Origin: a virus
Lineage: Duplodnaviria > Caudoviricetes
DNA length: 64,000 nt
IMG/VR virus record: IMGVR_UViG_3300020045_004441
Span: 13,056 to 77,055 of that record
Direction: 5' to 3' (one strand)
This document shows positions 8,669 through 36,830 of this stretch, piece by piece. The position numbers and the translations under genes were made by a program. The notes beneath the pieces are model-generated. The model saw only the letters and a list, made by a program, of their open reading frames with translations, made no database searches and was not told the DNA's origin. Numbering within the stretch: the first letter of the stretch is position 1; each line of letters begins with the position of its first letter.

Positions 8669-8953
8669 TTAATCTTTAAATTCTTCAAATGATAACCAAT
8701 CTTTAGATGCACAATATAATAAAATATATCCAGCCAAATCTATGAGATCATTTTTACGTAACTCACTGGAATTCATTATTCTGGCGGTCTTGTCGTCCAT
8801 TCTCAAGGCAATGCTATTATCTGCATCTAATTTACTAAATATCTTTATTGGGCTTAAAGCTGAATCGCCATATTTTTCATTCTTATATTTAAGTAATGAA
8901 TTCAACGATCCAGTTATTTGATCAATTTTCCATGCTGTATTTTTATCTGTCAT
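8669..8953 (-). CDS. Nmad1/DUF1599-like all-alpha NTP pyrophosphohydrolase-related protein
   Basis: KNEKYGDS...RMDDKTARI...DLIDLAGY pattern. Confidence 0.65.
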   Translation of the reverse strand: MTDKNTAWKIDQITGSLNSLLKYKNEKYGDSALSPIKIFSKLDADNSIALRMDDKTARIMNSSELRKNDLIDLAGYILLYCASKDWLSFEEFKD

Positions 8954-9714
8954 TTACTTACAGTTAAATTATTAATTAATTCTTTTATGTCACAATAATT
9001 TTCTTCGGTAAAATTAATCTTATAAGGAGCGTTAAATTCACTCCCTTTGTATTGTAGAATAAGATTATATTGTGATCCAATCATCCTACTAAATACATAT
9101 CCTCTAAGCAAAACCATAGATTCTGGATCTTTAATATCTAAGATTATTGTACTAACGCTATCAGTGATTTCTATGTCCTCAATGGCCTTAAAATTGACGA
9201 TTAAGAGACTTTCTTTATCTTTATTGTACGAACACTCACATAAATAATATCGCCCCTTAAAAGCCTTAGAAATGAGCTTTTGATATTGCTCTCCAAATAA
9301 GAACATTCTACATTCGCTATCTGAATCCTTCCACAGAATTCTGGCATAATTATTGCCAGCTAAAGATGTACAATATTCTATCGTATCAATTCTAGCAATA
9401 AATACAATTTTACCTTGGCTTTCCGACAATTCATTAATTGATCTAAGAGTGTTATTGCAAAATCTCTTTGAATGTAAAATATATCTATCCTGAATATTAT
9501 ACGTAAGAGCTACTCCCATTAAATCAACCTCGCGTTGTAATAATTCTTCATAGTTAACATTTTGAGGTGTTTTAAGATCTATGGTTTCATTCTTAGTCTC
9601 TGCAAATAACGATAGTTGATCTTTATTATTACGAGAACAACTTTTAATCAAGGATTCTGAGTTCTCGACTATAGTTGCTCTCCATAATAATTCATCTCTA
9701 ATTTTCTGATTCAT
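8950..9714 (-). CDS. Stand-alone C-terminal region of DNA polymerase III alpha (clamp-binding motif, OB fold, tau-binding CTD); no catalytic core
   Basis: QLSLF, ELLQREVDLMGVALT and TSLAGNNYARILWKDSDSECRMFLFGEQY align by eye to the DnaE segments QADMF, VVLDGERETLGLYLT and [29 protein letters not shown]. Confidence 0.75.
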   Translation of the reverse strand: MNQKIRDELLWRATIVENSESLIKSCSRNNKDQLSLFAETKNETIDLKTPQNVNYEELLQREVDLMGVALTYNIQDRYILHSKRFCNNTLRSINELSESQGKIVFIARIDTIEYCTSLAGNNYARILWKDSDSECRMFLFGEQYQKLISKAFKGRYYLCECSYNKDKESLLIVNFKAIEDIEITDSVSTIILDIKDPESMVLLRGYVFSRMIGSQYNLILQYKGSEFNAPYKINFTEENYCDIKELINNLTVSK

Positions 9715-10592
9715 TAGAAGTGTTCAGCATTATATTCAGCTTGTTTAGCTTCTTCATTTGGATCAACACCAAAGTCTACGTGATATGGATTTGCAAATTT
9801 AATTTGTTCCATAATTCCACGGCCATGAGCAATTACTCTTCCGCCTCTAGTTGCTTCTGATATTCGTGTAGAATCTGCCACTGGCTGAGTGTCGCCATCT
9901 AATATGGCTTGTGCTTCAACTATTGCACGCATTTCACTGACGGCATATCTTATTTCAAGAGCATCGTCCTCCTCTTCATCCTCATCATGCTCGCCATTAG
10001 GTTCTTCATCTTCAGTCTCATCATCACTAAATTCCATACTTTGCCAACCTGACTCGGTTGATTTTTCCAATAGATCAATTTCAAATCCAATTAATGTATT
10101 GCCAGAACGTTTATTTCTAAATGGATCTAAAATTGTTATTCCATTGATTAATTGAAATAATCTATCTCCAGTAGAACCGGTATTGGTATAGAATAATACT
10201 TTTGAATATCTATCATTCTTTTTAATGTCAGCTAGAAATTGATCCATAGCATTAAGAAAATCTGCTTTTGACATATCGCCATTAGCAGAGAAATTCTTAA
10301 TGATTGCGATTCCACAGCATTCTGGGAACGGTATTTGATCAAATCTCATAGCTGTCTCACCGTTGATTTTGTAACGATAAACCCTACTGTCACCATAAGA
10401 TCTATTTCTATCAGTAATATCAATATCTAATTCATTTCCTTTCATTATTTCAGTTGATTTTGTTTTTATTTCATCAAAATATGATTCTTTAATCCAACTT
10501 CTTGGGATTGTTGTATTGCCGCCAATAAAAATATCTCTCATTATGGAATCTAGTCTTTCTATAGTGAGATTTTGATATGTAAATTCATTCAT
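9714..10592 (-). CDS. Hypothetical protein with a CCG-type (possibly GNAT-like) domain and an acidic tract
   Basis: FPECCGIAII...FRNKRSGNTLIGFEIDL, followed by a D/E-rich stretch. Confidence 0.5.
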   Translation of the reverse strand: MNEFTYQNLTIERLDSIMRDIFIGGNTTIPRSWIKESYFDEIKTKSTEIMKGNELDIDITDRNRSYGDSRVYRYKINGETAMRFDQIPFPECCGIAIIKNFSANGDMSKADFLNAMDQFLADIKKNDRYSKVLFYTNTGSTGDRLFQLINGITILDPFRNKRSGNTLIGFEIDLLEKSTESGWQSMEFSDDETEDEEPNGEHDEDEEEDDALEIRYAVSEMRAIVEAQAILDGDTQPVADSTRISEATRGGRVIAHGRGIMEQIKFANPYHVDFGVDPNEEAKQAEYNAEHF

Positions 10593-10598
10593 ATTAAG

Positions 10599-11183
10599 TT
10601 ACTTCACATCCATTTCCACCAGACATGACTCGTGCTTGTTATTTTCTGAAATCATCGTGCATATTTTTATAAAATAATCATTGTTAAATACATTCTTCAT
10701 TCTGTTGATATCTTTATGAACCCATTGTACATTTCCATCTACATACCCCAATGAAGAGTCTATTCTATCTAGAGAGGCTGTTCCTGATCTATCTTTTGAC
10801 CTGGTTGGAAAATGTAATTCTATTCCAGACAATGCACACTTTTTATTCTGTTTCAAGAATAAATCCCAAATATATTCTTTAGATATAGATAATTCAACTG
10901 GAGCCCGGCTCCCTTTATCTCCATTGGCACTTCTTTCTATGCTGTGTCTCCAAAAGTTTCCAGAAATGTCTCCAATTCCAGTCCATTTGGGATGTGATTT
11001 CCCAACCGGCCTATCACATCCACAAGACTTAGTATTGCCCTGAATTAAATGGGTTCCAAGAACGTCGGTTTTATTTCCACACTCACATAGACATCTATAT
11101 CGTATGTGTCCATTTCTGGTCTTTGAGTTTATCTCTTCTACTATAAGCTTACCAAATTTTAATCCTCTTAAATCTTTTCTCAT
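10599..11183 (-). CDS. HNH homing endonuclease (free-standing)
   Basis: DLRGLKFGKL, CLCECG, SCGC, SLDRIDSSLGYVDGNVQWVHKDINRMK. Likely start MRKDL at 11183. Confidence 0.8.
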   Translation of the reverse strand: MRKDLRGLKFGKLIVEEINSKTRNGHIRYRCLCECGNKTDVLGTHLIQGNTKSCGCDRPVGKSHPKWTGIGDISGNFWRHSIERSANGDKGSRAPVELSISKEYIWDLFLKQNKKCALSGIELHFPTRSKDRSGTASLDRIDSSLGYVDGNVQWVHKDINRMKNVFNNDYFIKICTMISENNKHESCLVEMDVK

Positions 11184-11203
11184 ATACTCACATTTTATTA
11201 ATG

Positions 11204-11234
11204 CAAATATAGTAAAAATATGCGAGAATGCAAA
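11204..11234 (-). promoter_or_regulatory. Bacteroidota sigma-A type promoter for the HNH gene
   Basis: TTTG-N19-TATATTTG on the minus strand, 20 nt before the ATG at 11183. Confidence 0.7.
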
Positions 11235-11235
11235 A

Positions 11236-13113
11236 TCAGATAACCTCACACGAACCGCTTCCTCCACAAGCAACCTCTCCCATTAAAGATGTTTCATCAT
11301 ACCCTTCGATAACTTTAGTTAAATCTACATTTTTAAGATTAACTATTGCTGCATCATACTCTTCTTTAGTGCAAGATTCAAATGGAGCCTGAATATATGA
11401 ATGATTATCATGTGGCAATACAGCAATTCCACTGTATGTTTTACGATTATTCCACATCCATCCAGCAACCTCATCCCATTCATTGTCTCTGATAGATACA
11501 GTACAACTCACATTATGCTGATTATATCCACTTCTAAATCCAGGATTAACCCATTGTTCTGTAACAGCTTTAACTCTAGTAAGTAAATCTATCGCAGATT
11601 CATTTCTAATAATAGAACCTTCTGGAGCTTTTTGTGGGATCTTAATAATTGCAGTTGTTGATGCATTAAAGAAATCATCTTCAAGTAATTCTGGATTATT
11701 ATTAAGTAAATATCCATAAATACTTTCATTTTTATTCACTCGCATTCTTCTCCAATAGTAATTATCGTGCCAAGCATGAATTCCGCTAGAAGTTCCCAAT
11801 ACTAAGCTAGTTGTACCGGCCGGCTTAACGGTCGTTATTCTTGCAGCTCGCCTAATGCCAATTCTATCAGCATATTCAGCGTTTGTATCGACGGCAATAG
11901 AGGCCGCTTCTTCAAGATTATAATTAAACACTTTCATCGAAGCAATTCCAGTCATTGAAACGCCCAGTAAAGCATCTTTCTCGCAATTAGTCTTCCAAGA
12001 ATCTCGCAAATAATGAAAATCTGTATATGAAGCCTGTAATGTTCCAATTATAGATGCGGCCCTAACTCGATCATTCAAATCTTGTTGAGATTCAATATTT
12101 GAAACATTAACTTCAGTCAAATTGCAACATGCTGTGTCTCTGAGACTTATCTCGTGGCACGGGTTGAATCCCATCTCTGGATTATTAGTCCAAGATATTC
12201 CTGGCTCCCCTGCGCCTGAAGCTTTAATATAATTCCATAACTTCAAGAAGTCTTCTTTTTTAACTCTAGATCTAACAACTACTGCACTGTTATTTGCTAA
12301 TCTAAAGTGAGGATTTGTGTCCCACCAATTGCCAGATTTACATGAAAGCATGTCTGTATCATCAATTGTAAACAATGCTATTAGCGATGCTCTTCTTATT
12401 CCACCCGACAATACTGCATCTGCGATGTGACACATAATTGAATGTGCCTCCAGTGTTGATAATTGATCTCCATCATTTTTAGACTCAAGAATTCCTTGAA
12501 TTTTGACCAAGCACTCTCTTAGCGGCCTAGCTCCAGGAGCTTTTCCACCTGATGTAATTAATAATGAGCCCTTAGCTCTAATTTCTCTAAAATCAAAATC
12601 TATAGATGAATTTGATAATCCAAAATACGATTTTATCAAAACCTTAACTGCATCTGCCCACCCCTGAATACTATCAGATATAACATATCTACGGCGTCTG
12701 TTGATATTAGGCTTTCTAATTAATGGAAGCTTGGCTACGTGATGCTTCTGTACAGAATATCCCAGCCCACAGCCGCTTAGCAATAAAAACATTGCTTCCT
12801 GAAATATTCTTATATCGTTAACTGCGGCATAAGAGCAGTTATACAATCTTGCTGGGTTGATTTTGGCTGCCTTACCAGCAAACTGAAGACTCCTCATCGA
12901 CGGAAGAACCTTCTTGTCATACACGTATTGATACGCATCTCGAATGTCTTTTTGTAATGATGGAAACTTCTCAATATGCATTTCCATATTACGAGTAACT
13001 ATTTCACTCCAAGACTCTCGCCTATTCTTTTCGGGTAAAAACCTAGCATATTTATTAAAAATAGTGATTTCACTCAATATCTCTCTGCTCACATCTCTCT
13101 CACTATCGCTCAT
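11236..13113 (-). CDS. nrdJ: Class II (adenosylcobalamin-dependent) ribonucleotide reductase
   Basis: PSMRSLQFAG, LYNCSY, NPCHEISL, CNLTEVN, TTVKPAGTTSL, C-terminal ACGGSGSCEV. No beta-subunit gene nearby. Confidence 0.9.
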   Translation of the reverse strand: MSDSERDVSREILSEITIFNKYARFLPEKNRRESWSEIVTRNMEMHIEKFPSLQKDIRDAYQYVYDKKVLPSMRSLQFAGKAAKINPARLYNCSYAAVNDIRIFQEAMFLLLSGCGLGYSVQKHHVAKLPLIRKPNINRRRRYVISDSIQGWADAVKVLIKSYFGLSNSSIDFDFREIRAKGSLLITSGGKAPGARPLRECLVKIQGILESKNDGDQLSTLEAHSIMCHIADAVLSGGIRRASLIALFTIDDTDMLSCKSGNWWDTNPHFRLANNSAVVVRSRVKKEDFLKLWNYIKASGAGEPGISWTNNPEMGFNPCHEISLRDTACCNLTEVNVSNIESQQDLNDRVRAASIIGTLQASYTDFHYLRDSWKTNCEKDALLGVSMTGIASMKVFNYNLEEAASIAVDTNAEYADRIGIRRAARITTVKPAGTTSLVLGTSSGIHAWHDNYYWRRMRVNKNESIYGYLLNNNPELLEDDFFNASTTAIIKIPQKAPEGSIIRNESAIDLLTRVKAVTEQWVNPGFRSGYNQHNVSCTVSIRDNEWDEVAGWMWNNRKTYSGIAVLPHDNHSYIQAPFESCTKEEYDAAIVNLKNVDLTKVIEGYDETSLMGEVACGGSGSCEVI

Positions 13114-15892: not shown

Positions 15893-16126
15893 CTATGAAT
15901 TAAGTTCATAATACTCCATTGTTTTATTATACAGATTATCAGCAATTTCTTCAGCCTTTGAATTATCCATCTCAGCAAAGTAATCAACGAGTTCATCGCT
16001 GATTATCCTTGCCGTATCAAGATTATTAGAATTGATGTTCTTCTTATATATATTAATGACATCTTTATTGTTTTTAGACATTAAGACCATTAACATATCT
16101 GCAATTCTAAATAGTTCGTCTTTCAT
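15893..16126 (-). CDS. Hypothetical protein
   Basis: 77-aa ORF coupled to the amidoligase stop codon. Confidence 0.55.
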   Translation of the reverse strand: MKDELFRIADMLMVLMSKNNKDVINIYKKNINSNNLDTARIISDELVDYFAEMDNSKAEEIADNLYNKTMEYYELNS

Positions 16127-17562
16127 CCTAAAACACTATAAGGTGGCACAATTAAATCCTCAAGAAGTTCTTTATCTCCCTGAGCATCCATATTAACCAT
16201 ATAATCCTTCCGCCATTGCACATATCCACTTAAAATTGTTGCCAATTCTGGTAAATATACGTCGCTGAATATAGAATTTAAGTTAACAGTTCTCAAATCA
16301 CTAAAATTAGCAATCTCATCTTTATGTTTTTCAACATAAGCCATTACAGCATTACAGATAAATAGCCAATTAAGCATTTTGTGAGGGTTCTGAGTGATTG
16401 TATGAAGTCTGAATTCATGCGTGCCCGATCCACCCCAAATCATTGGTATACAGTTAGTTATGAAATATCTCTGAGAAATATTCCATTTCTGTCTGTTCTC
16501 TCTATCTAGAGGATGATTCTTTACACCAAATCCTTCAAAATGACCATTACCTCCAGAATAAAAATTATATAATGCTTCAAAATTCTGATCAACAGTATTA
16601 TTTTTCAATAATCTAATGTTCTTAATTGGAGCACAATAATCTTTCTCTTTGAATTTATTTTCAGATGTGAACTGATAATTACTTGGAAACATACTATAAA
16701 GCTCATCCTGAATTCTCAGCATAACTCTATGCATTGCTACAACAAACGCTTTAGATGGAGCATATCCGCCAATATGTAAATGAAGAGAACATTTCTTACC
16801 TATAGTGGTATATTTCTGAATTAAATCAGCAATATCAACCATAGTATGAACACCTTTCTCTCCACTTAATGGGATTGTTGTGAATTCAAATGGCTCAATA
16901 CCATCGTGTCTTAAACTGCCATCTCTAAGTGGAATTAATCCATTCTTAAAGCATTTCTGTTCAGGTATATAACCATCAGCAGTCTCCACTTCAAAGCCAA
17001 ACGTCTTGTCATTCAGCTCTTTAGCGAATTTGGCTAGTTTTGGAAGATACTTACTTGGCGTATAAGCCTTATCATAAGCTTCTTTGAATTGCTTAATCTT
17101 AGGCCCAGCACTGTAAGATAAATCAAATGAATATCTAGCGCCAATGCCTTTCTTATTAAGTCGCTCGTTAGATAGCTTGCCTTTAGGATAGAATGTTCCG
17201 GTGGAAATCTCTTCAACGAATCCAAGTTTATTTGGAATCTCATCAGAAATACATATTACATCATTCATCCTAACGTTCTTTAGTGGATTTGGAGAGAAAT
17301 AACCATTAATGGCAACTCCCTTATCGTCAACTCCAACAATGCCCTCATATAGCTCAGTGTTTTCTAATAGAACCCACCTCTGAGCCTCATGGTCAAATGC
17401 GATTAATCCATTGTTAATTCTGTGCCATTTATTATCTGGCATCAAAAAACAATCTACATTAATCTCATAATATTCATTTTTAATATAACGACATTTATTT
17501 CTTGGAACTAATTTACCATTAACAGTTGTTACTGTAAAATCTTTTGTATTAGAAATTGTCAT
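16123..17562 (-). CDS. Putative amidoligase (COOH-NH2 ligase, Amidoligase_2-like)
   Basis: FGFEVET, RDGSL...EFTTIPL, CSLHLHIG, DYC, RY...N, THEFRLHTITQN..K..NW. Confidence 0.8.
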   Translation of the reverse strand: MTISNTKDFTVTTVNGKLVPRNKCRYIKNEYYEINVDCFLMPDNKWHRINNGLIAFDHEAQRWVLLENTELYEGIVGVDDKGVAINGYFSPNPLKNVRMNDVICISDEIPNKLGFVEEISTGTFYPKGKLSNERLNKKGIGARYSFDLSYSAGPKIKQFKEAYDKAYTPSKYLPKLAKFAKELNDKTFGFEVETADGYIPEQKCFKNGLIPLRDGSLRHDGIEPFEFTTIPLSGEKGVHTMVDIADLIQKYTTIGKKCSLHLHIGGYAPSKAFVVAMHRVMLRIQDELYSMFPSNYQFTSENKFKEKDYCAPIKNIRLLKNNTVDQNFEALYNFYSGGNGHFEGFGVKNHPLDRENRQKWNISQRYFITNCIPMIWGGSGTHEFRLHTITQNPHKMLNWLFICNAVMAYVEKHKDEIANFSDLRTVNLNSIFSDVYLPELATILSGYVQWRKDYMVNMDAQGDKELLEDLIVPPYSVLG

Positions 17563-19465
17563 ATCCTGTAACTAGGGTGAATTTTTTAAATTTATTTTCT
17601 TCGAGTAAAATATCTTCCAACTTGGATAGATTATTAATAGACATAGCTGCATCTTGTGTTGAAATACCAGACACTTCAATGTCATTACGACAAGCATCAA
17701 TTGCCATCAGAATAGCACTTAACCCATCATTTAAAGCTGTTTTAAGCAAGGAAGCATCGGAACTTATTGCGTCATCAATATAACCCAATCCTCTGCATAG
17801 CGAGCAAACGTTCATATTTGCATCATCGCCAGTACCATTGCAGTCTGGACATAATATACAATTTTCAGGCAAATCATCATCGCTTGGCCCAGCCTCAGAT
17901 GCAACTTCAATTTCTTCCTTGAGTTTATTATGCTTATCTAAGATGGCATCCATCTCATCTTCACATTGTTTACATGTGCATGTTGTTGGATGTTGAATTA
18001 AATCACCAGCTTTTTCTGTATAAACTACTGGTAATGTAATAATCTTAGTCTCAGTCTTTTCGTGAACTGGCTTATTTATGACAGCAAGAAACTCAACACT
18101 TATTAAACTACCACCAGCAAATCTATACTTCTTTGTACTAAATAATGGTGTTACATTTCCAGTAAATAATGGAGCCTTGCATTGCATTGCTGCTGGATTT
18201 TTAAGCCATACTCTAGCGTTATCATATGTTGGTAGCTCATGATCTAATGTACATACTGGATATTCAGCATATTCACATATTTTCATTACGTTCATTTCAG
18301 TGTCATTGAAATGCCTAGCTTTACCAAGATTACGTCTACACTTATCAAATGCATCTTTATCTTTAAGCATTATTCCACGATAGAAATAATATGGCTTTTC
18401 ATCAGAAGCACATGCATATTCGCCTTTAACGCCACTCTCATCAAGATTAATAATACCATTAGCATAAGTTGGAGTTACGCCATCAAACATAAAGTAATAC
18501 CTCAATCTTGCGCAAATAATCTTTTTAGGATTAAAGTTTTTACAGATCATGTCTTTCTTGATGCTTAATTTAAATGTCTCTTTAACTTGTGGATACGCTG
18601 ATTCGTAATAAGCTGCAATTGCCTCTGCATTACCATAGCCATCATCCCAATCGTCAGTTCTACCATAACCATAATGCTTAGTACTAGAATTATTGGCAGT
18701 ATTTACATATGTTGTTGTTGGCCATATTTTATTCTGAGAACAATCTTTTCTATCGAACACTTGCTCGCTAATTATCTGACCACCAAAAATTGTATATAAT
18801 TTATTTGGCTCAAAATCCACCACGTTATCAGCATCACCACCAATAAAATATAATCCATCACACTTTGATGAAATATACATTGAGGTTTCTGACTCTTGAT
18901 AATAACACAATGGACGCTCTTCTTCAACTTTGACTCCATATGTTTTAGATAAACCTTTAAATACCTTTAAAGTATCAGGCTCTCTATCGTCCTTAATAAT
19001 TATTGCAGCTGCACCATTGTATTCAAGCAATACTCCAAAACCATAATTCATAATAATTTCAGCAAATACCATTGAGTCAGATTTTCCTTTCTTATCAATA
19101 TTGTATTTCTTAGCAAGCTCTTCCCAATTATGGAGAGTGCCATTATGAATCATTATGAATCTACCTGAACCATCTGGTAAATCAAGTACTACCGGCTGAG
19201 CTGTAGCTTCTGATATCTCACCAACACTAGCTTTTCTAGTGTGACCCAAGGCGATGTGCGATGGGTCACTATTCTTCGTGTTGATAACATAATCTTGATA
19301 TGTTGTTTTAGCTTTCTTTGATACAAATTTATCAATCGTCTCTCCAACAATTCTACCAATGGAATCACCTCCACGCTCATCGTTGTCTAATCCAAGATGA
19401 TTAAATTTATCCCAATTGAAGTTGTGATTATTTCTTAAACTGTTGTAGGCCCAAAGTCCACACAT
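17549..19465 (-). CDS. Class II (Ntn) glutamine amidotransferase with a long C-terminal extension
   Basis: N-terminal MCG nucleophile, ERGGDSIG, LGHTRKASVG, AQPV, HNGTLHNW, SDS. C-terminal CPDCNGTG/CSLCRGLG. Confidence 0.85.
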   Translation of the reverse strand: MCGLWAYNSLRNNHNFNWDKFNHLGLDNDERGGDSIGRIVGETIDKFVSKKAKTTYQDYVINTKNSDPSHIALGHTRKASVGEISEATAQPVVLDLPDGSGRFIMIHNGTLHNWEELAKKYNIDKKGKSDSMVFAEIIMNYGFGVLLEYNGAAAIIIKDDREPDTLKVFKGLSKTYGVKVEEERPLCYYQESETSMYISSKCDGLYFIGGDADNVVDFEPNKLYTIFGGQIISEQVFDRKDCSQNKIWPTTTYVNTANNSSTKHYGYGRTDDWDDGYGNAEAIAAYYESAYPQVKETFKLSIKKDMICKNFNPKKIICARLRYYFMFDGVTPTYANGIINLDESGVKGEYACASDEKPYYFYRGIMLKDKDAFDKCRRNLGKARHFNDTEMNVMKICEYAEYPVCTLDHELPTYDNARVWLKNPAAMQCKAPLFTGNVTPLFSTKKYRFAGGSLISVEFLAVINKPVHEKTETKIITLPVVYTEKAGDLIQHPTTCTCKQCEDEMDAILDKHNKLKEEIEVASEAGPSDDDLPENCILCPDCNGTGDDANMNVCSLCRGLGYIDDAISSDASLLKTALNDGLSAILMAIDACRNDIEVSGISTQDAAMSINNLSKLEDILLEENKFKKFTLVTGYDNF

Positions 19466-19493
19466 AAGTTGTTGATTATTAGTTAATTACTAT

Positions 19494-19856
19494 TTATTTT
19501 ATTAATTTAAGTGCAGCTAACAGTCCAGCTTCTAATGCAAGCTCGTAAGATTCAAATTTACCCCAATTAGTTGACTCTTCGTGATATGGCAGTGAATAAT
19601 GATATATTTTGGTTTGACCATTAAACATTCCAGATCTTATTGTTATATTAATTTTATGAACTTCTCGGAGCCAACGTTGTAATAGACTTTGAGTTGGAGC
19701 TGAAATAAAATCTATACAATTTTGAGAGTTCCAATCATACATTAATGAAGTTCTATCGGTCAGTATTTCTTGACGATACATTTGATAGACCTTCCAGTCA
19801 AAATCTTTATCCTTGGCTAGTCTCGCAGTTTGCAGTGACACTAATTGCTCTTGCAT
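19494..19856 (-). CDS. Hypothetical phage protein
   Basis: VSLQTARLAK...SAPTQSLLQRWLRE pattern, common in Bacteroidota phages. Confidence 0.6.
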   Translation of the reverse strand: MQEQLVSLQTARLAKDKDFDWKVYQMYRQEILTDRTSLMYDWNSQNCIDFISAPTQSLLQRWLREVHKINITIRSGMFNGQTKIYHYSLPYHEESTNWGKFESYELALEAGLLAALKLIK

Positions 19857-20673
19857 CTTCTTTAATTAATTGTTCATTTAAATCAATACCAAGCACCATA
19901 TATTGGTTCATAGTAAATTCAGCATTTTCAGTTACTGGAGCTTTAACATAATCCAATAGTCTAAGATTTTCATAATTAGCACAATATTGCACAGCTTTGA
20001 TAGTTTGTTCGTAAGTCCAAGCCAAATGTTCTTCAGCGGTAAAATGTCCACCTAAAGCGCGACACTCAATTCCATAGGCTGGACAATCACGATATACGCC
20101 ATAATTACCATAATATTTAGCCCTAAATTCATCATTGTGATGTTGTCTAGCTGGATACACTACGAAGTAATCAAATGCCTTAGCAATATAACGATTCATC
20201 TGACGCTTATCCAAAACCCCTGCAACCATATGATAACCAACATGATGGTGATGACCAGCTACTCGAACTGGCATAAAACTCATATTCTCAGCAGAAAAAC
20301 TACCTAACTCCCAAGCGTTTTTATACGCTGAGCAGCCAAACACATTTGCCTCTGGATGCTCTAAAAATCTAGGTTTGAATCGCATTGAATCAGCTGAATG
20401 AAGTTGTAATCCTGCAATAGCAAGAACACTATTCATCATTGATTTAAGGGTCTTCATAGACGCTACAAACTCATCAACATTCTTGGCTGGTGGAATGTTC
20501 CCCTCAACTAAAACATTGTCTTTAAGGAGCGCAAAACCACCTCCTTGGTCTTCTGGAGACTCTTTGGTTCCGTTAAATATTCCAATTGATGGAAATGCAT
20601 CACCTTTTTTATCTACAATGAAAAATTCTGGATCTGATCCAATTGTTATATTATCTAAATCAATTAAATTCAT
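19807..20673 (-). CDS. phiEco32-like COOH-NH2 ligase type 2
   Basis: IGSDPEFF, KDNVLVEGNIPP, FGCS, AGHHHHVGY, R..YYG..G.YR, YGIECRALGG. Confidence 0.85.
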   Translation of the reverse strand: MNLIDLDNITIGSDPEFFIVDKKGDAFPSIGIFNGTKESPEDQGGGFALLKDNVLVEGNIPPAKNVDEFVASMKTLKSMMNSVLAIAGLQLHSADSMRFKPRFLEHPEANVFGCSAYKNAWELGSFSAENMSFMPVRVAGHHHHVGYHMVAGVLDKRQMNRYIAKAFDYFVVYPARQHHNDEFRAKYYGNYGVYRDCPAYGIECRALGGHFTAEEHLAWTYEQTIKAVQYCANYENLRLLDYVKAPVTENAEFTMNQYMVLGIDLNEQLIKEDARAISVTANCETSQG

Positions 20674-20960
20674 TATTGTTGTTTTTGTTTGTTGTAATAT
20701 TTTATGAATTCAACTACTGTTCTCCAAAGAGAATTAATATTAACCTCAATCAATGCATCATTAAGTTTAAATTGATGATTAGATAAATTATTTTCAATTA
20801 AATCATATTTTTCAAAACATCTCTCAACTACTGGCATTAACCAATCCCAAGATTTATTATATTTTAATGATTGTAAACACAATAAATCTTTATTACCTTT
20901 TGATACTTTCATGAAGTTATCAATCAATTTATTTCCTTTAATTATCTCCGTTGAATTCAT
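20673..20960 (-). CDS. Hypothetical phage protein
   Basis: KYNKSWDWLMPVVE motif. Confidence 0.6.
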   Translation of the reverse strand: MNSTEIIKGNKLIDNFMKVSKGNKDLLCLQSLKYNKSWDWLMPVVERCFEKYDLIENNLSNHQFKLNDALIEVNINSLWRTVVEFIKYYNKQKQQ

Positions 20961-20968
20961 GATTTAAT

Positions 20969-22054
20969 TTATACTACTTTAAAATGTGTTTTTAATAAAT
21001 GTCTTTTACAATAATCATCATTCTTAACTATATAAAGATTATCATACATCGAGAATTCAGCTTGATATTTATTACCTTTAGTTAGCGTTTTAAGCCTATC
21101 TGTAATACATTCTACTTCAAATGGCTTTCCAGACACCTCTTTAAATACATCAATTGCTGCCTTAAAATTTGAGACATTCATTAAAGTGAAATTACTTTTC
21201 TTTGCATTTGAGAATGATAGATTAATACTCTCGCCTTTTGGTAATCTAGTTTTAACATCTTCCATACTAACATATCCTGTTTGGTATAATAATCCATAAT
21301 ATCCAGAATAATTGGTTTTAGATAAAGCATAGTATAATGCATCCCAGGGGTCAATTGTAGTGTCTGATTTAATAATTCTCAACGTATCTGCAACTAATCC
21401 ATCAAAATGACAGCTCCATAAAAATCTGTAGAATGTTAAGATTGCTAATTTATGATTAGTACTCAATGCTTTAGAGCAATCAATGGTTACTATATATGCA
21501 TTAAATTCAGGAATTGGCATAACCATTTTGGCATCTTCTTGCTCTTTGAGAATTCTTTCAACATAAAGATCTAAGCATTCTCCAGTTTCATAAACCTGAT
21601 GATCAGAGGCATATCCATTCCAATTTGAGAACATTTTATTCCCATTAAATTTATCAGTTCTATATACAGAGCAATGTGTTTGCAATCTACTAAAATTGCC
21701 ATCTATTGAATTTATTACTCCAAATACATTTTTATTTGCATCATTCTGTCTGTACCTATAATTCTTTTTACAGGTAATTCTCAATCCTTTGAATTGTTCT
21801 AATCTTGGATCGTATGACGAATTATTGCTACTTAAATCAATATTTACTTTCTCTAATGCAGCTGGAAATAATGTTTCATTACCAATTTTATTCCACAATG
21901 TAACATCATCATCTGAAATCCCTGTATTCAACCATGTGAATGGAATGTAAATATCAATTGGAATAGTTTTATTACGAATATCCATCATACATTGTGTTTG
22001 CTGAATGCCGTAACCTTGATGATAATCGTATTTAGTGTTATTATGATCTGCCAT
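20969..22054 (-). CDS. Unknown 361-aa protein within the amidoligase cluster
   Basis: ORF coupled to the ATP-grasp gene; no recognised motif. Confidence 0.6.
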   Translation of the reverse strand: MADHNNTKYDYHQGYGIQQTQCMMDIRNKTIPIDIYIPFTWLNTGISDDDVTLWNKIGNETLFPAALEKVNIDLSSNNSSYDPRLEQFKGLRITCKKNYRYRQNDANKNVFGVINSIDGNFSRLQTHCSVYRTDKFNGNKMFSNWNGYASDHQVYETGECLDLYVERILKEQEDAKMVMPIPEFNAYIVTIDCSKALSTNHKLAILTFYRFLWSCHFDGLVADTLRIIKSDTTIDPWDALYYALSKTNYSGYYGLLYQTGYVSMEDVKTRLPKGESINLSFSNAKKSNFTLMNVSNFKAAIDVFKEVSGKPFEVECITDRLKTLTKGNKYQAEFSMYDNLYIVKNDDYCKRHLLKTHFKVV

Positions 22055-22868
22055 AATTTGCTATTTTGTCATTAATAATCTTGGGTAATTCCTCTCTATA
22101 TTTAACTTCAGTTACACTTCCGAGCGATGCGGCGCTGTTAATTTCAAGAATTATAAATTCTGGTACAAAATCTTCACGGCGTCCTTTCTCGGACTGCACC
22201 TTAACGTCACAAGCACCCAAGTCTAACCCAACTGCATTTAATGCCTTTACGCACTCAGATACAATATCATCCCAATTCTTAGGCTTTTCAAATAGAGGAT
22301 TTTCTTCCATCATCCAAACTGAATTAGAATCATGACGATGCCAACGATCTTCAGCATCTTGTTTTAACATTTTACGACAAGTATAGAAACAACCATCTTT
22401 AGTTACATGCAAGCGATACTCTTTAGTCATGCTTGAAGCGAAAACTTCCACGATATAATTAGAATGATCTCTATGTTCGGATATAAAATTATCCAAATCA
22501 GACTGAGATAATATTAGATAAATTCCTTCACCTTTGCATGAGTTTTTATGCTTAATGATTGCTGGGAATGTTGTCCAATCAGCACCATCAACATCAGTTA
22601 TATCTTCAAGTTTGCTCCATTGTGCTGTTTTAACTCCAATCTCATCAAACTTTTGCTTCATAATAATTTTATTACCACTGTTATGACAAGCTTCAACTGT
22701 ATTTACTTCAATAACTGGTCGTCCCTGTGGCATCCTAGGAAATGCCTCTGTAACAGTAGTTCTACTACCTAGACGTATAATACAACGCATAGCAAACTCC
22801 CCTAGAGAATTTCTAAGAGGAGCTGCTGTATGATTCTTGGTTCTAATTTGTGGCTTCCAGGTCTTCAT
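22041..22868 (-). CDS. RimK-like ATP-grasp peptide/amide ligase
   Basis: IRLGS, NSGNKIIMKQ, IIKHKNSCKGEGI, KEYRLHV, LDLGACDV, ILEINSAASLG. Confidence 0.85.
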   Translation of the reverse strand: MKTWKPQIRTKNHTAAPLRNSLGEFAMRCIIRLGSRTTVTEAFPRMPQGRPVIEVNTVEACHNSGNKIIMKQKFDEIGVKTAQWSKLEDITDVDGADWTTFPAIIKHKNSCKGEGIYLILSQSDLDNFISEHRDHSNYIVEVFASSMTKEYRLHVTKDGCFYTCRKMLKQDAEDRWHRHDSNSVWMMEENPLFEKPKNWDDIVSECVKALNAVGLDLGACDVKVQSEKGRREDFVPEFIILEINSAASLGSVTEVKYREELPKIINDKIANYGRS

Positions 22869-23085
22869 CTCTAAATATTAAATTAGCACAATAAATTACA
22901 AAAATTACAAATAGTATGACTGCAAATTCAATCAAATAAACAATCCCCATATTTACCATAAACGAGTGGTGATTATCCGTTAAGAATCCCACTATACCAG
23001 TAAAAACTGGCAATATAGACAAAAGAAGAGCAGACCCTACTATTTGTCTAGTCTTGATATGCATATCTTCTTTTGTAAAATTCAT
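22843..23085 (-). CDS. Small two-TM membrane protein
   Basis: Two hydrophobic segments; fills the gap between the GGCT and ATP-grasp genes and overlaps both slightly. Confidence 0.5.
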   Translation of the reverse strand: MNFTKEDMHIKTRQIVGSALLLSILPVFTGIVGFLTDNHHSFMVNMGIVYLIEFAVILFVIFVIYCANLIFRDEDLEATN

Positions 23086-23437
23086 TCCAATCACCACTCT
23101 CTACCGAATCGTACCCAGATTGATATCTAGGACTTTCTAAAACATAAACTTCAACTTCTCCGAGAGATGTTGGCACTAATGCTTTTTGGTAAAAACTTGG
23201 CCAGCCCTCCAGGCACTCAACGCTACGATATGTATAATCATTAACTTCCCATATTTCTACGGTAATGTCATGATTTTCTGGTGATGGTATTAATCCGGGG
23301 AAGCCGCCCAGCGACACCATGCGATATGGAATATTAATTACCTCTGTTGATTTAAGCTCGCTATCTCGTAGTAACCTATTGTTGCCGTGACCTTTACGCA
23401 AAGACCCGTATGTTACGATTAATCTTTTATTGCTCAT
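23048..23437 (-). CDS. Gamma-glutamylcyclotransferase (GGACT/AIG2-like)
   Basis: VTYGSLRKGHGNN, FPGL, VEIWEV, LEGWPSFY. Confidence 0.85.
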   Translation of the reverse strand: MSNKRLIVTYGSLRKGHGNNRLLRDSELKSTEVINIPYRMVSLGGFPGLIPSPENHDITVEIWEVNDYTYRSVECLEGWPSFYQKALVPTSLGEVEVYVLESPRYQSGYDSVESGDWNEFYKRRYAYQD

Positions 23438-23876
23438 TTGTTTTGTTTTTATAAATTTCTAACAATGAATTCCATGAATATCCATCAATAAGACTTGTCT
23501 TTCCGGTATCATTCCATCTATTATTTTGGCTATTTTCAATGGTATATTCCCAATATGTTGGATGTACTTCACTACTGTAAAATACAAGCTTATGTTTATT
23601 TTGACAAAATAAACATCTAACTACATGATCGTTGTCAAGAAGCTTAATTAAATCTATCAACATTACAATTAAGTCGTCTTCTTTTGTTTCAGTCTTAAAT
23701 GCACCATCTAGTAACATTTTAAGGTCGCCAATGGATCTAGATTTTCTGGGTCTACATTGCATGTCTGTGCATTCAGGATCGTTGAATGTTGCTGGAGTAC
23801 ATTTAACAAAATAATCTAATAGAAAATTCTTTTTAGATTGTCTATTTAATTGTTGGGCACAATATATTTTATTCAT
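23427..23876 (-). CDS. Hypothetical protein, paralog of 31646-32074
   Basis: AT....QC...K.RS..DL..L...F pattern. Confidence 0.55.
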   Translation of the reverse strand: MNKIYCAQQLNRQSKKNFLLDYFVKCTPATFNDPECTDMQCRPRKSRSIGDLKMLLDGAFKTETKEDDLIVMLIDLIKLLDNDHVVRCLFCQNKHKLVFYSSEVHPTYWEYTIENSQNNRWNDTGKTSLIDGYSWNSLLEIYKNKTNEQ

Positions 23877-24588
23877 CTTGTAATACTGATTTTTTAGTTC
23901 GCATAATTCTATTAACCATATTTTCCATCAAAACAATTGTGTCATAATCAACGCAATCTTCAATGTGACTTTGTATTCCTATGATTGGCAGTGTGTTGTG
24001 AGCAATTAACTCAATTGTATTATCTTTCTCATGTGTTGCTAGTACCGATAACCCCTCACCTAAAAATCTAGGATCAATTGCTTGATGATGCCTACTGTTA
24101 ACACCATAAACTCTCTGAGGCTGCCTATTTTGCATTACTGGTGCAAATTCTGAGAAATTCCAGAAGTCAATAGCATTAATTTTAATGTTGTGCATTGTCT
24201 TATATGGATCTTCAGGTTTATTGGTCTCATGAGACATATGCTGAATTAACTTACTTCCAAAGTGAACTGCTATTGATTGTAATCCGCGGCAGATACATAG
24301 GATTGGAGTTTCAGTCTCTACATATGCTGGCAATATATTTAAGTCAAAATATTCTTTATGAATATCTGGCTTGCCTGTAAAATATGATGGAACTTCGTTA
24401 TAGCGGTCTACTGAGACGTCGGCGCCTCCAGTTAATAATAGCAAATCTAAATCTGGTTTAAACGAGCTATCTGGAAGCAATAATATTGGTTCTCCAAATT
24501 GTGATGCATATTCTAAGTAACTTAGAGTTAATCCAACTGAATTTTCTCCAAGCTTACTGATTGGAATTCCTATTTTTTTTCGTGTCAT
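23869..24588 (-). CDS. Peptidase C26 / gamma-glutamyl hydrolase (class I GATase fold)
   Basis: LLLTGGADV, ICRGLQ (catalytic Cys), VNSRHHQAI, GIQSHIE (His-x-Glu). Confidence 0.85.
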   Translation of the reverse strand: MTRKKIGIPISKLGENSVGLTLSYLEYASQFGEPILLLPDSSFKPDLDLLLLTGGADVSVDRYNEVPSYFTGKPDIHKEYFDLNILPAYVETETPILCICRGLQSIAVHFGSKLIQHMSHETNKPEDPYKTMHNIKINAIDFWNFSEFAPVMQNRQPQRVYGVNSRHHQAIDPRFLGEGLSVLATHEKDNTIELIAHNTLPIIGIQSHIEDCVDYDTIVLMENMVNRIMRTKKSVLQDE

Positions 24589-25753: not shown

Positions 25754-26353
25754 TTAGTTGGAATACCTCCATACGAATCCTCCAGATGTTTTATATCTTT
25801 TTGAGCAGCAATTAGAGATGTTTCCATTGCGAATTCCGGTAACCCTTTCGGCATCTTTTAAAGAATAAAATTCTCTAATGAGATTTCCATCCAAATCATA
25901 TTGTTTTATTGATTTACTCATTTTATTGTTTATTCCATTCTTTGCATCAGAATGAGCTTTATGGATGTTTTCTATAGTTGATAATATTTGAATATTATCC
26001 AAAGAGTATGTTTTATAATCATTAAGTCTATCAACAGACGGAGTGAATTTGAATCCATAATTAGACTCTTCCCATATTTTAAATTGAACGTGATATTTAT
26101 CTTGAGATAAACACCAGCTCCGCAATTCATCTAGCGAATATTCTGGATATTCATAATTTCTTTTTCTACAATTATCTCTCTGATGTGAATAGATTCTAGT
26201 TACGAGTCCTTCTTTAGTTCTATTATATTGAGTTGTTTTTTCATTTGCGCACTTTCTGCATATATAAGACACATACCCACGACTATCTATATAAAAATCA
26301 ATCAACTCTTTATCTTCCTTGCAACAATTACATTTCTTTGTTTTAATTTCCAT
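25754..26353 (-). CDS. HNH-type homing endonuclease with a NUMOD1 DNA-binding domain
   Basis: CNCC..CRKC, SVDRLNDYKTYSLDNIQ, QYDLDGNLIREFYSLKDAER...NISNCC...GGFVW. Confidence 0.7.
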   Translation of the reverse strand: MEIKTKKCNCCKEDKELIDFYIDSRGYVSYICRKCANEKTTQYNRTKEGLVTRIYSHQRDNCRKRNYEYPEYSLDELRSWCLSQDKYHVQFKIWEESNYGFKFTPSVDRLNDYKTYSLDNIQILSTIENIHKAHSDAKNGINNKMSKSIKQYDLDGNLIREFYSLKDAERVTGIRNGNISNCCSKRYKTSGGFVWRYSN

Positions 26354-27395
26354 TTTCTAGTTTATATTTTAACAATCCATTAAATTCTCTCAATCCATAT
26401 TTAGCCACTAATTCCGCAGGATCTTTAGCCCTATAAATATATGGATTGTAAAGATACTCAATGTTATACATACTAGAAAATTTTTTAGCATTTATTATTC
26501 CACTATTGTAATCTTTTTCATAATCATTGTCAAACCAAATTACAATTCGATTCCATCTTGGCCTTAATTTTTTATAGAAAATTTCTGGCAAAATGAACGA
26601 TCCCTCATTGTTCGGGGCGATCGCATTGCAATAATGTCCATTAAGTCTCCAGAAAATTCCCGCATCTTTCTTACTACTTGTAATATATAGCGTATCTCCA
26701 CCGCCTTTGGGTAATAAATCCCAATTCTGAATAACAGTATTATCTACATTAGAAATCCATTTGTGCTTACCATCGCGTTCTGGGAAATATAGTTTTCTCC
26801 TATAAATACCATTATGCCTATAATAATCATAACTATAAGCCAATTCATGTGGCACTGCATATGGCATCTTAATCATACCCTTGTGCTCCATTGTTAGCCA
26901 GAAGTAGTCTATTGGCCTAATAGAAGCCATCTGAAGCATTTCTTCAGTCCAGCCATATTGTTGCCAGTATTCTAAGTCGTAATCCTTATATGGAGCGTAT
27001 GACACATTTATGACAGTTGTAGATTTCTCCTTAAAATGCGGTGTTGGATTAATCTTAGATATAATAGTTCTTACATATCTGAAATCTCTATCAGAATTAT
27101 CTATTAATTGTAATCCAAAATCTAGATTAATCTTTCTAATAGCATCCCTAAAATCTAAATTAAACTTACGCATCACATATTCAATAGCCCTGTAAGATCC
27201 CTCTCCAAAATCTGTGTACAAAAGGTCTCCGCCAATATGTTCTATCATACACGATGGAGACTTTTCATCTCTAAACTCTGATTTAAAAGGCTGTGATATT
27301 TTCTTAAAATTCCTACAGTAAGCTTGAAATATTTGATATGTTGAAATCACATCTAATAAATTGCTCTTAGTAAGAATATTTCTAGTTGTGATCAT
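26343..27395 (-). CDS. dnaG: DNA primase (Toprim)
   Basis: SEFRDEKSPSC, YTDFG, ITSSKKD, WFDND (DxD), KDPAEL. Confidence 0.8.
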   Translation of the reverse strand: MITTRNILTKSNLLDVISTYQIFQAYCRNFKKISQPFKSEFRDEKSPSCMIEHIGGDLLYTDFGEGSYRAIEYVMRKFNLDFRDAIRKINLDFGLQLIDNSDRDFRYVRTIISKINPTPHFKEKSTTVINVSYAPYKDYDLEYWQQYGWTEEMLQMASIRPIDYFWLTMEHKGMIKMPYAVPHELAYSYDYYRHNGIYRRKLYFPERDGKHKWISNVDNTVIQNWDLLPKGGGDTLYITSSKKDAGIFWRLNGHYCNAIAPNNEGSFILPEIFYKKLRPRWNRIVIWFDNDYEKDYNSGIINAKKFSSMYNIEYLYNPYIYRAKDPAELVAKYGLREFNGLLKYKLENGN

Positions 27396-29291: not shown

Positions 29292-30122
29292 TTATTTTAT
29301 TATTTCTTTGTGTTTCCAATAAAATCCGTATTTTAATATTTCTTTATCCATCCAGCTACGAATTCCTTCTTTTATTATGCCATTTTCTCTCTCAGCTTCA
29401 CCTCTAGATCTATATGTATTTATTAGGTTGTAATCCTTATCATACTGATACACTTTTTTACCTAGTCGTTTAATATTAAATTCAGATATTTTTCTTTTGT
29501 GCTCTAAGGTTAATGGAGTTCCGTTAGCCCACCATTTGTCATATATATAGGATTTATTTGCGTCATAATCCTTTTGATAACAAAATGTAAAATCTTGAAG
29601 AAAATTTTTCTTGTGACCCAAGCAGCATTGTGACACATTTGTACTAGAAGACTTTATAAATCTAGCGGCATCTGATACTGAATCAAATTCATATTGTAAT
29701 TCTCCCGTAAACCTATTGAAGACAAAAACTGGCTTAGAAGTTCGTTTCTTATTGTCCTCAATAGACTTTCTGCTTTTGTTCCAAGCTGTAATGTGTGTGG
29801 AATTATTAAGCATTTGATTGTATCCATTATTAATTACATCTAGTGAAATTATGTATTTTTCTTCTAGTTTTAGTAATTCATTTCTGTCTATTGAATCAAA
29901 TTGTTCTAATATTTCTACCTCAAAAGCAGTTGTCCCATATTTATCGAATGATTTTTGCAAATGAACATTACAATGAACATTATTTATTAGCTCATAATAA
30001 TGCCTCTGAAGTCTTAACTTTAAATTTACTGCTGATCCAATGTAGGATAAGTTTGTTTGATTGTTTGTAATTTTGTAGATCCCAAATGTTTTTGGGAATT
30101 CTTTAAAATCTAATGTATTCAT
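29292..30122 (-). CDS. GIY-YIG homing endonuclease with NUMOD1 repeats
   Basis: GIYKITN...SYIGSAVNLKLRLQRH, GYN, two NUMOD1-like repeats. Likely ATG at 30122, since the track TTG start overlaps the promoter. Confidence 0.85.
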   Translation of the reverse strand: MNTLDFKEFPKTFGIYKITNNQTNLSYIGSAVNLKLRLQRHYYELINNVHCNVHLQKSFDKYGTTAFEVEILEQFDSIDRNELLKLEEKYIISLDVINNGYNQMLNNSTHITAWNKSRKSIEDNKKRTSKPVFVFNRFTGELQYEFDSVSDAARFIKSSSTNVSQCCLGHKKNFLQDFTFCYQKDYDANKSYIYDKWWANGTPLTLEHKRKISEFNIKRLGKKVYQYDKDYNLINTYRSRGEAERENGIIKEGIRSWMDKEILKYGFYWKHKEIIK

Positions 30123-30146
30123 AACGGCTATCTGTTTATTAGATAG

Positions 30147-30177
30147 CAAAGATATACATTATTATTTAATTTACAAA
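30147..30177 (-). promoter_or_regulatory. Bacteroidota sigma-A type promoter for the GIY-YIG gene
   Basis: TTTG-N19-TATCTTTG. Confidence 0.7.
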
Positions 30178-30509: not shown

Positions 30510-31646
30510 TTATATGGTATTTTTGTTGTAATTCGCTATCTGCTCATAAACTCTTTCTGATGGTTCCCTAGGTAATTCTGCAAAGTAATTACATGCACCT
30601 AGGAACATAAGATCTATGGATGCGCTAGATATTCCATTACGATTAAGGTTAATTAGCAATTCTCTATGATTCATACCAATTCTAGCTAAATCCCAGCCAT
30701 TATATGATGGAATCTTATAATTATAGGGCCAAAACAGACTAATCATTAAATTTGCATCATTCTTGGTTGATTTATTATCAGCTAATCCTTCTGGGTTGGG
30801 TTTCAATCGTTCAATCATTACATCTCCACGATTAGTATATTGCGCATCCGTGGAATTCGCAGTTTGTTGCTGGATGAGTACTGGTGAATATCCCCATCTA
30901 TCTCTAAGTTTAAGAAATATTTTGGATGATAATTCCCCAATTGCTTCATATAGAGAGCTTTGATCCTTCTGTGGAGAAATCAAACCACAGTGATCAACAA
31001 GAACGACTACATATTCATCGGGTTTATTTGGAATATATCTATCAACAACCTTTTTAACAGTTGAGCTGCCATCATCTTCCTGCCAAGCAACATCCTTATA
31101 TTCATAATGACCATTAGCTTCAGCATAGGATTTCATTGTAAGTAATATGCCAGTAGTATTTCTAATATCATCATGAATTGTCACAATTGATTGAAATTCC
31201 ATTAACCATTGTTGAAATTCTCTAGAATCAATAATCTTCAACAATCTATCATCAAGAGTATACCCAGCAAATACAGATTGTAAATTATCTGGACTAATTA
31301 TAATCCCATACGATTTAAATAACTTATAACTAATTGCAGATATGATCAACAAGTCTGCACTAATTTCAAGACTAAAGTAGAATATCTTAAGAGTTATGTT
31401 TGTTGAATCTCTATTTGTAAGATACCAGTCAATTGGTTCAAACATATATAAGTAATTGGCTAACTGAGACTTACCTCCTTTACTTTGGGCCGAAATTATT
31501 GTAAATTGCTTTTGTCTAACTCCTGGAAGTATTGATGAAAGTCTTGGTAGACTCCATGGTATCGCTATTAGGTCTCCATTTAATTTACGCTCTCTGTTTT
31601 GTTTAAGCTGATCAACAACTCTTTTAATCCTATCTTTCTCTTCCAT
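30510..31646 (-). CDS. dnaB: DnaB-like SF4 replicative helicase
   Basis: AQSKGGKSQL (Walker A variant), FSLEIS, VLVDH, IQQQ, DNKST..DA, RNG. Confidence 0.8.
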   Translation of the reverse strand: MEEKDRIKRVVDQLKQNRERKLNGDLIAIPWSLPRLSSILPGVRQKQFTIISAQSKGGKSQLANYLYMFEPIDWYLTNRDSTNITLKIFYFSLEISADLLIISAISYKLFKSYGIIISPDNLQSVFAGYTLDDRLLKIIDSREFQQWLMEFQSIVTIHDDIRNTTGILLTMKSYAEANGHYEYKDVAWQEDDGSSTVKKVVDRYIPNKPDEYVVVLVDHCGLISPQKDQSSLYEAIGELSSKIFLKLRDRWGYSPVLIQQQTANSTDAQYTNRGDVMIERLKPNPEGLADNKSTKNDANLMISLFWPYNYKIPSYNGWDLARIGMNHRELLINLNRNGISSASIDLMFLGACNYFAELPREPSERVYEQIANYNKNTI

Positions 31647-36735: not shown

Positions 36736-36750
36736 AACGAATTTAATTTG

Positions 36751-36830
36751 TACGCAGAGATGGATTTGAACCACCGATCTTTCCGTAGCCGTAGCCCGCC
36801 GGAGTGCTTTAACCGCTAAGCTATCTGCGA
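36751..36830 (-). tRNA. tRNA-like gene with an abnormal 14-nt anticodon loop (isotype unassignable; contains CT-ACG-GC)
   Basis: Acceptor CGCAGA/TCTGCG (1:72 mismatch), D-arm GCTT-AGCGGTTA-AAGC, 5-nt variable loop, T-arm GGTGG-TTCAAAT-CCATC. Anticodon stem TCCG/CGGA encloses GCGGGCTACGGCTA. No encoded CCA. Confidence 0.7.

Follow-up and report, generated by a model that had tools for sequence, protein, structure and literature searches.

In the alpha subunit of bacterial DNA polymerase III (Pol III), as known from Escherichia coli and Thermus aquaticus (Taq), the C-terminal region holds an internal motif for binding to the beta clamp, an OB fold that touches the single-stranded template and a C-terminal domain (CTD) that binds tau. 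It is this last, tau-binding domain that sets DnaE1 apart from DnaE2. The architecture of DnaE1 was given as PHP-Pol3-(HhH)2-OB-CTD (PMC3919608). The clamp-binding consensus is QL(S/D)LF, with Gln1, Leu4 and Phe5 as key residues, and in E. coli peptide studies this consensus bound most strongly of all, surpassing the internal QADMF of alpha itself (PMC11139829). In Crassvirales the DNA polymerase (DNAP) gene has been swapped often and is occasionally absent, the cause of which is unexplained (PMC7886860); the epsilon group and some environmental genomes are among the crAss-like phages reported to be without it (PMC7886860; Yutin et al. 2021). Here, a 64,000-nucleotide (nt) stretch of a crAss-like phage, called the window, was analysed. 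It comprises bases 13056-77055 of the 77-kb linear IMG/VR virus record IMGVR_UViG_3300020045_004441 (the contig), which is 76% complete according to CheckV. Judged by sequence comparison, the open reading frame (ORF) at 8950-9714 on the minus strand, referred to as the DnaE-tail gene, encodes a protein of 254 amino acids (aa) with genuine homology to the final ~260 residues of Pol III alpha (DnaE1) and to no other part of it.

A homologue of the DnaE C-terminus alone

The DnaE-tail gene starts with ATG and is intact. Its parts are listed below in window positions; structural assignments refer to an AlphaFold2 (AF2) model, for which confidence is given as predicted local distance difference test (pLDDT).

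8950..9714, minus strand: whole DnaE-tail gene; its 254-aa product is a stand-alone homologue of the C-terminal part of DnaE1 (NCBIfam, hhalign, homologues)
9640..9708, minus strand: N-terminal helix, residues 3-25 (AF2), counterpart of the DnaE helix preceding the clamp motif; R12 invariant
9604..9618, minus strand: predicted beta-clamp-binding motif QLSLF, residues 33-37, in a disordered linker; aligned with QVSLF of DnaE
9460..9552, minus strand: helical segment ahead of the OB fold, residues 55-85, with a DnaE-like E..E..LG in which E62 and G67 are invariant (alignments)
9184..9408, minus strand: OB fold, residues 103-177 (AF2 strands, pLDDT 85-92; VIA-align to Mycobacterium tuberculosis DnaE1)
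8956..9150, minus strand: C-terminal alpha/beta domain, residues 189-253 (pLDDT >90), probably equivalent to the domain by which Pol III alpha binds tau

The protein matched the NCBIfam model NF004226 (DNA polymerase III subunit alpha) with an E-value (E) of 6e-11, residues 12-195 being aligned with profile positions 888-1078 of 1146. The 562 ORFs in the six frames of the 77-kb contig were all compared with a hidden Markov model (HMM) of 40 full-length flavobacterial DnaE sequences, and the 254-aa ORF was its sole match (E 6e-9; HMM positions 1213-1337 of 1461). A phage-only family profile, composed of 28 divergent members without bacterial DnaE, was aligned by hhalign with the full-length DnaE profile at a probability of 99.3% (E 2.8e-20) over DnaE positions 1201-1460 of 1461. 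This alignment begins at family column 20, which corresponds to DnaE 1201, and extends from the helix preceding the clamp motif through the final DnaE residues; the helical segment of residues 55-85 was aligned with the EKEvvGiYiSgHP segment of DnaE. Among long proteins the phage-only profile detected genuine DnaE only, with PHP, Pol3 and HHH_6 domains (best E 5.8e-14). The ORF had no match in Pfam or PHROGs, and a comparison with the sequences of the PDB by phmmer and by profile returned nothing meaningful.

None of the catalytic parts of alpha accompanied this tail. A PHP domain (PF02811) was not matched by Pfam in the ORF, and no other ORF of the contig was matched by the DnaE HMM, in which the PHP region is included. 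The Pol3 catalytic core (PF07733), that is the palm with its catalytic aspartates, was found nowhere on the 77 kb; nor was the (HhH)2 domain (PF14579), downstream of which the phage proteins begin. For the fingers (PF17657) the result was the same, as the full-length DnaE HMM matched only over positions 1213-1337 and the protein was aligned with DnaE 1201-1460 only. Pfam revealed no intein or Hint signal in the ORF, the N-terminus of which was aligned with DnaE's own helix and not with an intein-C segment. An earlier note on this DNA had described the ORF as matching the C-terminus of DnaE only (clamp motif, OB fold and CTD), without PHP, palm or finger domains and without an intein-C start. 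NCBIfam, hhalign and the fold searches agree with the first statement, and the blank Pfam and DnaE HMM scans bear out the second. The search for an N-terminal DnaE half that the note had proposed yielded none on all 77 kb.

The AF2 model of the whole protein (pLDDT 77) consists of an N-terminal helix (3-25), a disordered stretch (24-51), helices, the OB fold (103-177) and the alpha/beta domain (189-253). Its best Foldseek match was Taq Pol III alpha in complex with tau_c (4iqj_D, E 4e-6), followed by PolC and other alpha structures. With VIA-align, residues 72-254 of the model were superposed on Taq alpha 1012-1200, and the OB fold was aligned with residues 992-1099 of M. tuberculosis DnaE1 (7pu7_A; Z 12, root-mean-square deviation 3.0, 105 residues). 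The CTD folded alone with a pLDDT of 90. Among 48,161 PDB representatives this lone domain ranked Taq alpha 1124-1200 first (Z 5.6), with E. coli alpha 1078-1155 in second place (Z 4.6), and the top three Foldseek matches were all Taq alpha, with template modelling (TM) scores of 0.58-0.61. Because the ranks in the fold searches coincide with the collinear hhalign alignment, homology with the tau-binding domain of alpha is the best reading of the predicted CTD. 

The same note had pointed to an ideal QL[S/D]LF clamp consensus in the ORF, and QLSLF was indeed present at residues 33-37. In a six-frame scan of the window, no further strict clamp motif lay within a real ORF. QLSLF was invariant in 21 aligned sequences (the query and 20 close homologues). 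In the 28 divergent members, which are 20-67% identical to the query, R12, Q33, F37, E62 and G67 were invariant and S35 and L36 were conserved in at least 90%. A Qxx[LIMF]F pattern near position 35 was present in 66 of the 73 members that are not DnaE, as QLSLF in 41, QMSLF in 13 and QLDLF in 4; the seven members without it were five short fragments, a 227-aa protein and a 379-aa protein. Residues 24-51, which surround the motif, had a pLDDT below 50 and are predicted to form a disordered linker. The flanks of the motif are variable and predicted to be disordered, while Q and F are kept in members that are only 20-30% identical. Beta-clamp-binding proteins are characterized by a consensus pentapeptide in a segment that is accessible, disordered or terminal, and QLSLF in its predicted linker agrees with this.

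To delimit the family, the single sequence was compared by phmmer with 1.84 billion representatives, which gave 61 matches. These were mostly stand-alone proteins of 220-290 aa sharing one N-terminal start; the remainder were shorter fragments, a few proteins of 300-380 aa and partial bacterial DnaE genes. At the weak end of the list were P0065 (E 2.4e-7), P0071 and P0079, with the HHH_6 and OB domains of DnaE; unlike the phage stand-alone proteins these DnaE fragments carry the (HhH)2 domain. The 21 close homologues (48-96% identity) were all 253-261 aa long except for one 183-aa fragment. One homologue had been annotated by JGI as 'DNA polymerase III alpha subunit'. No match was obtained when three family members were compared by tblastn with 50,697 GenBank phage records, and pattern scans of IMG/VR and genome contigs with the close-family alignment did not reveal relatives. 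Literature searches found no description of a stand-alone DnaE tail in phages, and neither 'polymerase III' nor 'clamp' occurs in the main text of the crAss-like phage study PMC7886860. As far as can be judged from these comparisons, the tail of the replicase has given rise to a new, conserved family of phage proteins, consisting of about 60 stand-alone proteins of ~250 aa that are known only from metagenomes.

A subfamily of ~227 aa (P0036, P0043, P0045, P0047, P0053, P0057 and P0063) has the clamp motif, as QLSLF, QLDLF, QLDIF or QLTLF, and the OB fold, without the CTD. This subfamily suggests that predicted clamp binding and the OB fold form the common core of the family. One of its members was found in a context that does not look crAss-like, near genes for a 5'-3' exonuclease, a protein with a DnaA_C domain and a fragment of Prim-Pol.

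Genomic setting and the polymerase slot

The contig has the organization of Crassvirales. Its TerL is 43% identical to those of IAS virus and crAss001, the portal and TerL PHROGs were matched, and giant virion genes (ORFs of >3479 aa and 1361 aa) face a replication block on the opposite strand with a DnaG-primase/DnaB-helicase module. This leftward block (2911-42731), which contains the DnaE-tail gene, is densely packed, and signs of recoding or decay were not found in it. It encodes a DnaB-like helicase (30510-31646), a DnaG-like primase (26343-27395), an AAA_24 ATPase, a PD-(D/E)XK exonuclease, a RusA-like resolvase and a ribonucleotide reductase (RNR), as well as homing endonucleases and a cluster of amidoligase and glutamine-amidotransferase genes. 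The helicase gene region (30510-32074, minus strand) is composed of a DnaB-like protein of just 378 aa, matched over the C-terminal domain, and an overlapping upstream ORF of 142 aa without a family match, which may be a separately encoded N-terminal domain.

A recognisable DNA polymerase of any family is absent from the contig. Profile searches for the DnaE core, HHH_6, PolA and PolB were negative on the 77 kb, and no polymerase was found among the ORFs scanned with family libraries. The negative result with PF03175 carries no weight, as its control matched nowhere. Unannotated ORFs of 408 and 361 aa were considered as polymerases and set aside, as they had no family match. When proteins of IAS virus were used as queries, collinear orthologues of the helicase, primase and exonuclease were detected (E 1e-53; 1e-10 and 5e-9; 6e-13), whereas the PolA query found nothing. 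The gene order in IAS virus is helicase, primase, exonuclease, RNR, dUTPase, PolA; on the contig it is helicase, primase, exonuclease, RNR, an HNH endonuclease, a 292-aa gene and the DnaE-tail gene. Because the orders correspond as far as RNR, the DnaE-tail gene takes the place that PolA has in IAS virus, which is the slot of the polymerase in crAss-like relatives. This RNR-linked synteny is kept in relatives in which the protein is 63%, 33%, 26% and 24% identical, one of them on a 101-kb contig. In a 51%-identical relative (L005) and for a member of the short subfamily, no RNR was present within the fetched region. In every context examined the neighbours were non-DnaE genes, and none of them was recorded with a polymerase domain.

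The immediate neighbours of the DnaE-tail gene overlap it:

9714..10592, minus strand: upstream overlapping gene, 292 aa, unrelated to DnaE, with a possible GNAT-like fold and an acidic tail

The ATG of the DnaE-tail gene shares the sequence TAATG with the stop codon of the 292-aa gene, and at its 3' end ATGA contains its own stop and the ATG of a downstream 94-aa gene. The earlier note had likewise called the ORF intact and not decaying, and its upstream gene unrelated. The overlapping codons and the length of ~250 aa that recurs across the family support the former. As to the latter, the 292-aa protein was without a match in Pfam, PHROG and NCBIfam, and its low-confidence Atlas model was closest to GNAT acetyltransferases (residues ~45-180), followed by a strongly acidic stretch; the last residue of the protein is Phe. 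A counterpart with 41% identity occupies the same position in the relative L002 and a weakly similar one was seen in L010; it is absent from L006 and L008. The 292-aa gene is therefore a recurrent but not universal neighbour of the DnaE-tail gene. The possibilities that it encodes a hidden piece of DnaE or a single-stranded DNA-binding protein like T7 gp2.5 were unsupported, the low-confidence GNAT-like fold being the sole lead. Between RNR and the 292-aa gene lies the HNH endonuclease gene (10599-11273, minus strand), which overlaps the 3' end of RNR by 38 nt. It is likely to be a mobile insertion, because it is missing at the equivalent place in L002.

Several other genes of this phage were recorded. 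A cluster of enzymes that modify peptides or metabolites (16123-24588, minus strand) lies inside the replication block and is kept in L002, L006 and L008. Its members, and the homing endonucleases of the phage, are:

16123-17562, minus strand: amidoligase, modifying-enzyme cluster
17549-19465, minus strand: class-II glutamine amidotransferase, modifying-enzyme cluster
19807-20673, minus strand: COOH-NH2 ligase, modifying-enzyme cluster
22041-22868, minus strand: RimK/S6-glutaminyl-transferase-like protein, modifying-enzyme cluster
23869-24588, minus strand: peptidase C26 gamma-glutamyl hydrolase, modifying-enzyme cluster
25754-26353, window numbering: homing endonuclease, NUMOD1
29292-30149, window numbering: homing endonuclease, GIY-YIG
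L001:10933-11772, numbering of the contig (L001): homing endonuclease, GIY-YIG/NUMOD1

A permuted (two-piece) transfer-messenger RNA was detected at 36461-36830 on the minus strand (Rfam RF04321, 70 bits, E 1.7e-11), adjoining a tRNA (RF00005, 47 bits); ARAGORN called the same permuted molecule, with the tag peptide GKTINLFREVAIAA. Ahead of the window, between two giant virion genes, the contig carries a ferritin/rubrerythrin-like gene (L001:10447-10929, plus strand; PF00210, E 1e-22), the syntenic counterpart of which in L002 was recorded as DUF5856. At 59554-63999 (plus strand) a tail-fibre-like protein of 1482+ aa has a GDSL lipase/acylhydrolase domain at residues ~950-1140, possibly a glycan or lipid deacetylase for processing of the host surface.

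Proposed function and rival explanations

On present evidence the phage encodes a helicase, a primase, a recombination exonuclease and an RNR of its own, and neither a polymerase nor a clamp or clamp loader. Its DNA must then be replicated by the Pol III holoenzyme of the host. We consider it moderately probable that the DnaE-tail protein is a polymerase-less mimic of the tail of alpha, which docks on the host sliding clamp, and probably also on tau, in a lineage of Crassvirales that apparently has no polymerase. QLSLF would bind the host beta clamp and the CTD would probably bind host tau, so that the protein would replace one alpha at the clamp and tau sites. Clamp and clamp-loader assemblies of the host would thereby be captured or re-wired for phage forks. 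We infer the binding to clamp and tau from the roles of the three parts in alpha; the direction of the effect could be recruitment to phage forks or displacement of host alpha. The earlier note had suggested a decoy that sequesters clamp and DnaX, or an adaptor by which the host replisome is redirected to phage forks. Both would be compatible with the anatomy, but a pure inhibitor of Pol III is difficult to reconcile with a phage that apparently depends on this enzyme. A more specific proposal, possible if rather doubtful, is a viral 'pseudo-alpha' that would sit on one tau arm and on the host clamp and would couple the host Pol III holoenzyme to the phage helicase-primase fork.

Several points weigh against docking for the benefit of the phage. 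A protein that competes with alpha for clamp and tau might be harmful to a phage in need of Pol III, and the alignment with DnaE covers the protein from end to end, so that no extra domain with an evident role in contacts with phage proteins is left. The match of the CTD has low absolute Z scores (5.6 and 4.6) and concerns a common small fold. Since the ~227-aa subfamily is without this domain, tau binding cannot be a universal function of the family. A very divergent polymerase could hide in the largest unannotated ORFs (408, 361 and 292 aa), or a polymerase could be encoded in the unseen 24% of the genome. That part is flanked by two genes of the plus strand, one for the tail fibre and one for the giant virion protein, and from comparison with IAS virus should consist of structural genes.

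A rival explanation is that the protein is purely a host-shutoff decoy, which would titrate beta clamp and/or tau from host alpha and arrest chromosome replication without any role at phage forks. This would agree with the missing catalytic part, with an alignment to DnaE over the full length that leaves no appended domain for contact with phage proteins, and with a QLSLF consensus that is predicted to win against the weaker motifs inside natural alpha subunits (PMC11139829). However, blocking the coupling of Pol III, clamp and tau would also hit a phage that apparently has no polymerase, clamp or clamp loader of its own. In addition, an OB fold and a CTD that are kept across a deep family are more than a clamp-blocking peptide requires, and the gene belongs to the block for replication and nucleotide metabolism and lies apart from the small genes with which the leftward block begins. 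A decoy is therefore considered unlikely. Quite improbable is a trans-acting processivity and docking subunit, by which a phage polymerase that either has diverged beyond recognition or lies in the missing 24% of the genome would be tethered to clamp and clamp loader of the host. The position of the gene in the DNAP slot of crAss-like genomes would fit such a subunit, and divergent phage PolA variants that standard models overlook do exist (PMC11348598). Yet the 77 kb gave no signal for PolA, PolB or a DnaE core, and the dense replication block has no unannotated ORF of the size of a polymerase. The upstream partner looks like a GNAT protein rather than a polymerase, and some relatives do not have it; the absence of polymerase fusions from the long proteins retrieved with the phage-only profile is weak evidence in the same direction.

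An ordinary split or decaying dnaE, of which the N-terminal part is elsewhere or was recently lost, would also give homology to a contiguous C-terminal block of DnaE, and the JGI annotation of the one homologue is in line with it. This explanation is essentially excluded. There was no other piece of DnaE on the contig and no intein or Hint signal, and the neighbours were non-DnaE genes throughout. Moreover, one start and a length of ~250 aa recur, with invariant motif residues, in about 60 clusters down to 20% identity, which speaks for long purifying selection as a stand-alone gene.

If the 'pseudo-alpha' proposal were true, it would explain how polymerase-less Crassvirales replicate genomes of ~100 kb, and it would be the first virus-encoded, catalytically empty copy of a replicase docking module that commandeers the replisome. 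Crassvirales rank with the most abundant phages of the gut and the environment, and a conserved copy of the docking module in the polymerase slot offers a testable handle on the takeover of the host Pol III holoenzyme. The protein would also be a natural, evolved ligand of the beta-clamp cleft, which is an explored antibacterial target (PMC11139829), and possibly of the alpha-tau interface. Even if it were only a shutoff factor that blocks the clamp, it would represent a new family of that kind, derived from a replicase.

Comparison with known systems

The closest likeness is to the C-terminal region of bacterial DnaE1, with which the phage protein shares the position of the motif, the OB fold and the fold of the CTD, and with which it is collinear over the whole stretch that begins with the helix ahead of the motif and reaches the C-terminal residue. 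It differs from DnaE1 in being the product of an independent phage gene without PHP, Pol3 palm, thumb and fingers, or (HhH)2. Its motif is the ideal consensus, whereas some alpha subunits have weaker variants.

With regard to the dependence on a host replicase, the helicase G40P of Bacillus phage SPP1 contacts host tau. Like the contig, SPP1 encodes a helicase and fork proteins of its own without a polymerase, clamp or clamp loader, and uses host Pol III (PMC3561973). Such a gene set implies that the elongation machinery of the host is captured. No SPP1 protein was reported in that study as a copy of an alpha domain, whereas the phage described here encodes a mimic of the alpha docking module. 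The DNAP-less crAss-like phages resemble the contig in having a DnaG-type primase and a DnaB-type helicase and neither PolA nor PolB (PMC7886860).

The intein-split DnaE of cyanobacteria and the two-piece mini-DnaE of jumbo phages have a partner ORF for the catalytic half, in contrast to the 77 kb of this contig (76% complete). In the intein-split form the C-terminal piece starts with intein-C; the DnaE-tail ORF has no Pfam intein match, and its N-terminus was aligned with a helix of DnaE.

Small clamp-binding proteins of staphylococcal phages reportedly arrest replication of the host chromosome. The clamp-binding ORFs of the staphylococcal phages G1 and Twort are, like the DnaE-tail protein, phage products, and occupation of the clamp cleft would be expected for the latter as well. 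They are said to be short unrelated polypeptides, whereas the DnaE-tail protein, from a phage to which the host replicase seems indispensable, is a three-part module, apparently derived from alpha, that adds an OB fold and a CTD to the clamp motif.

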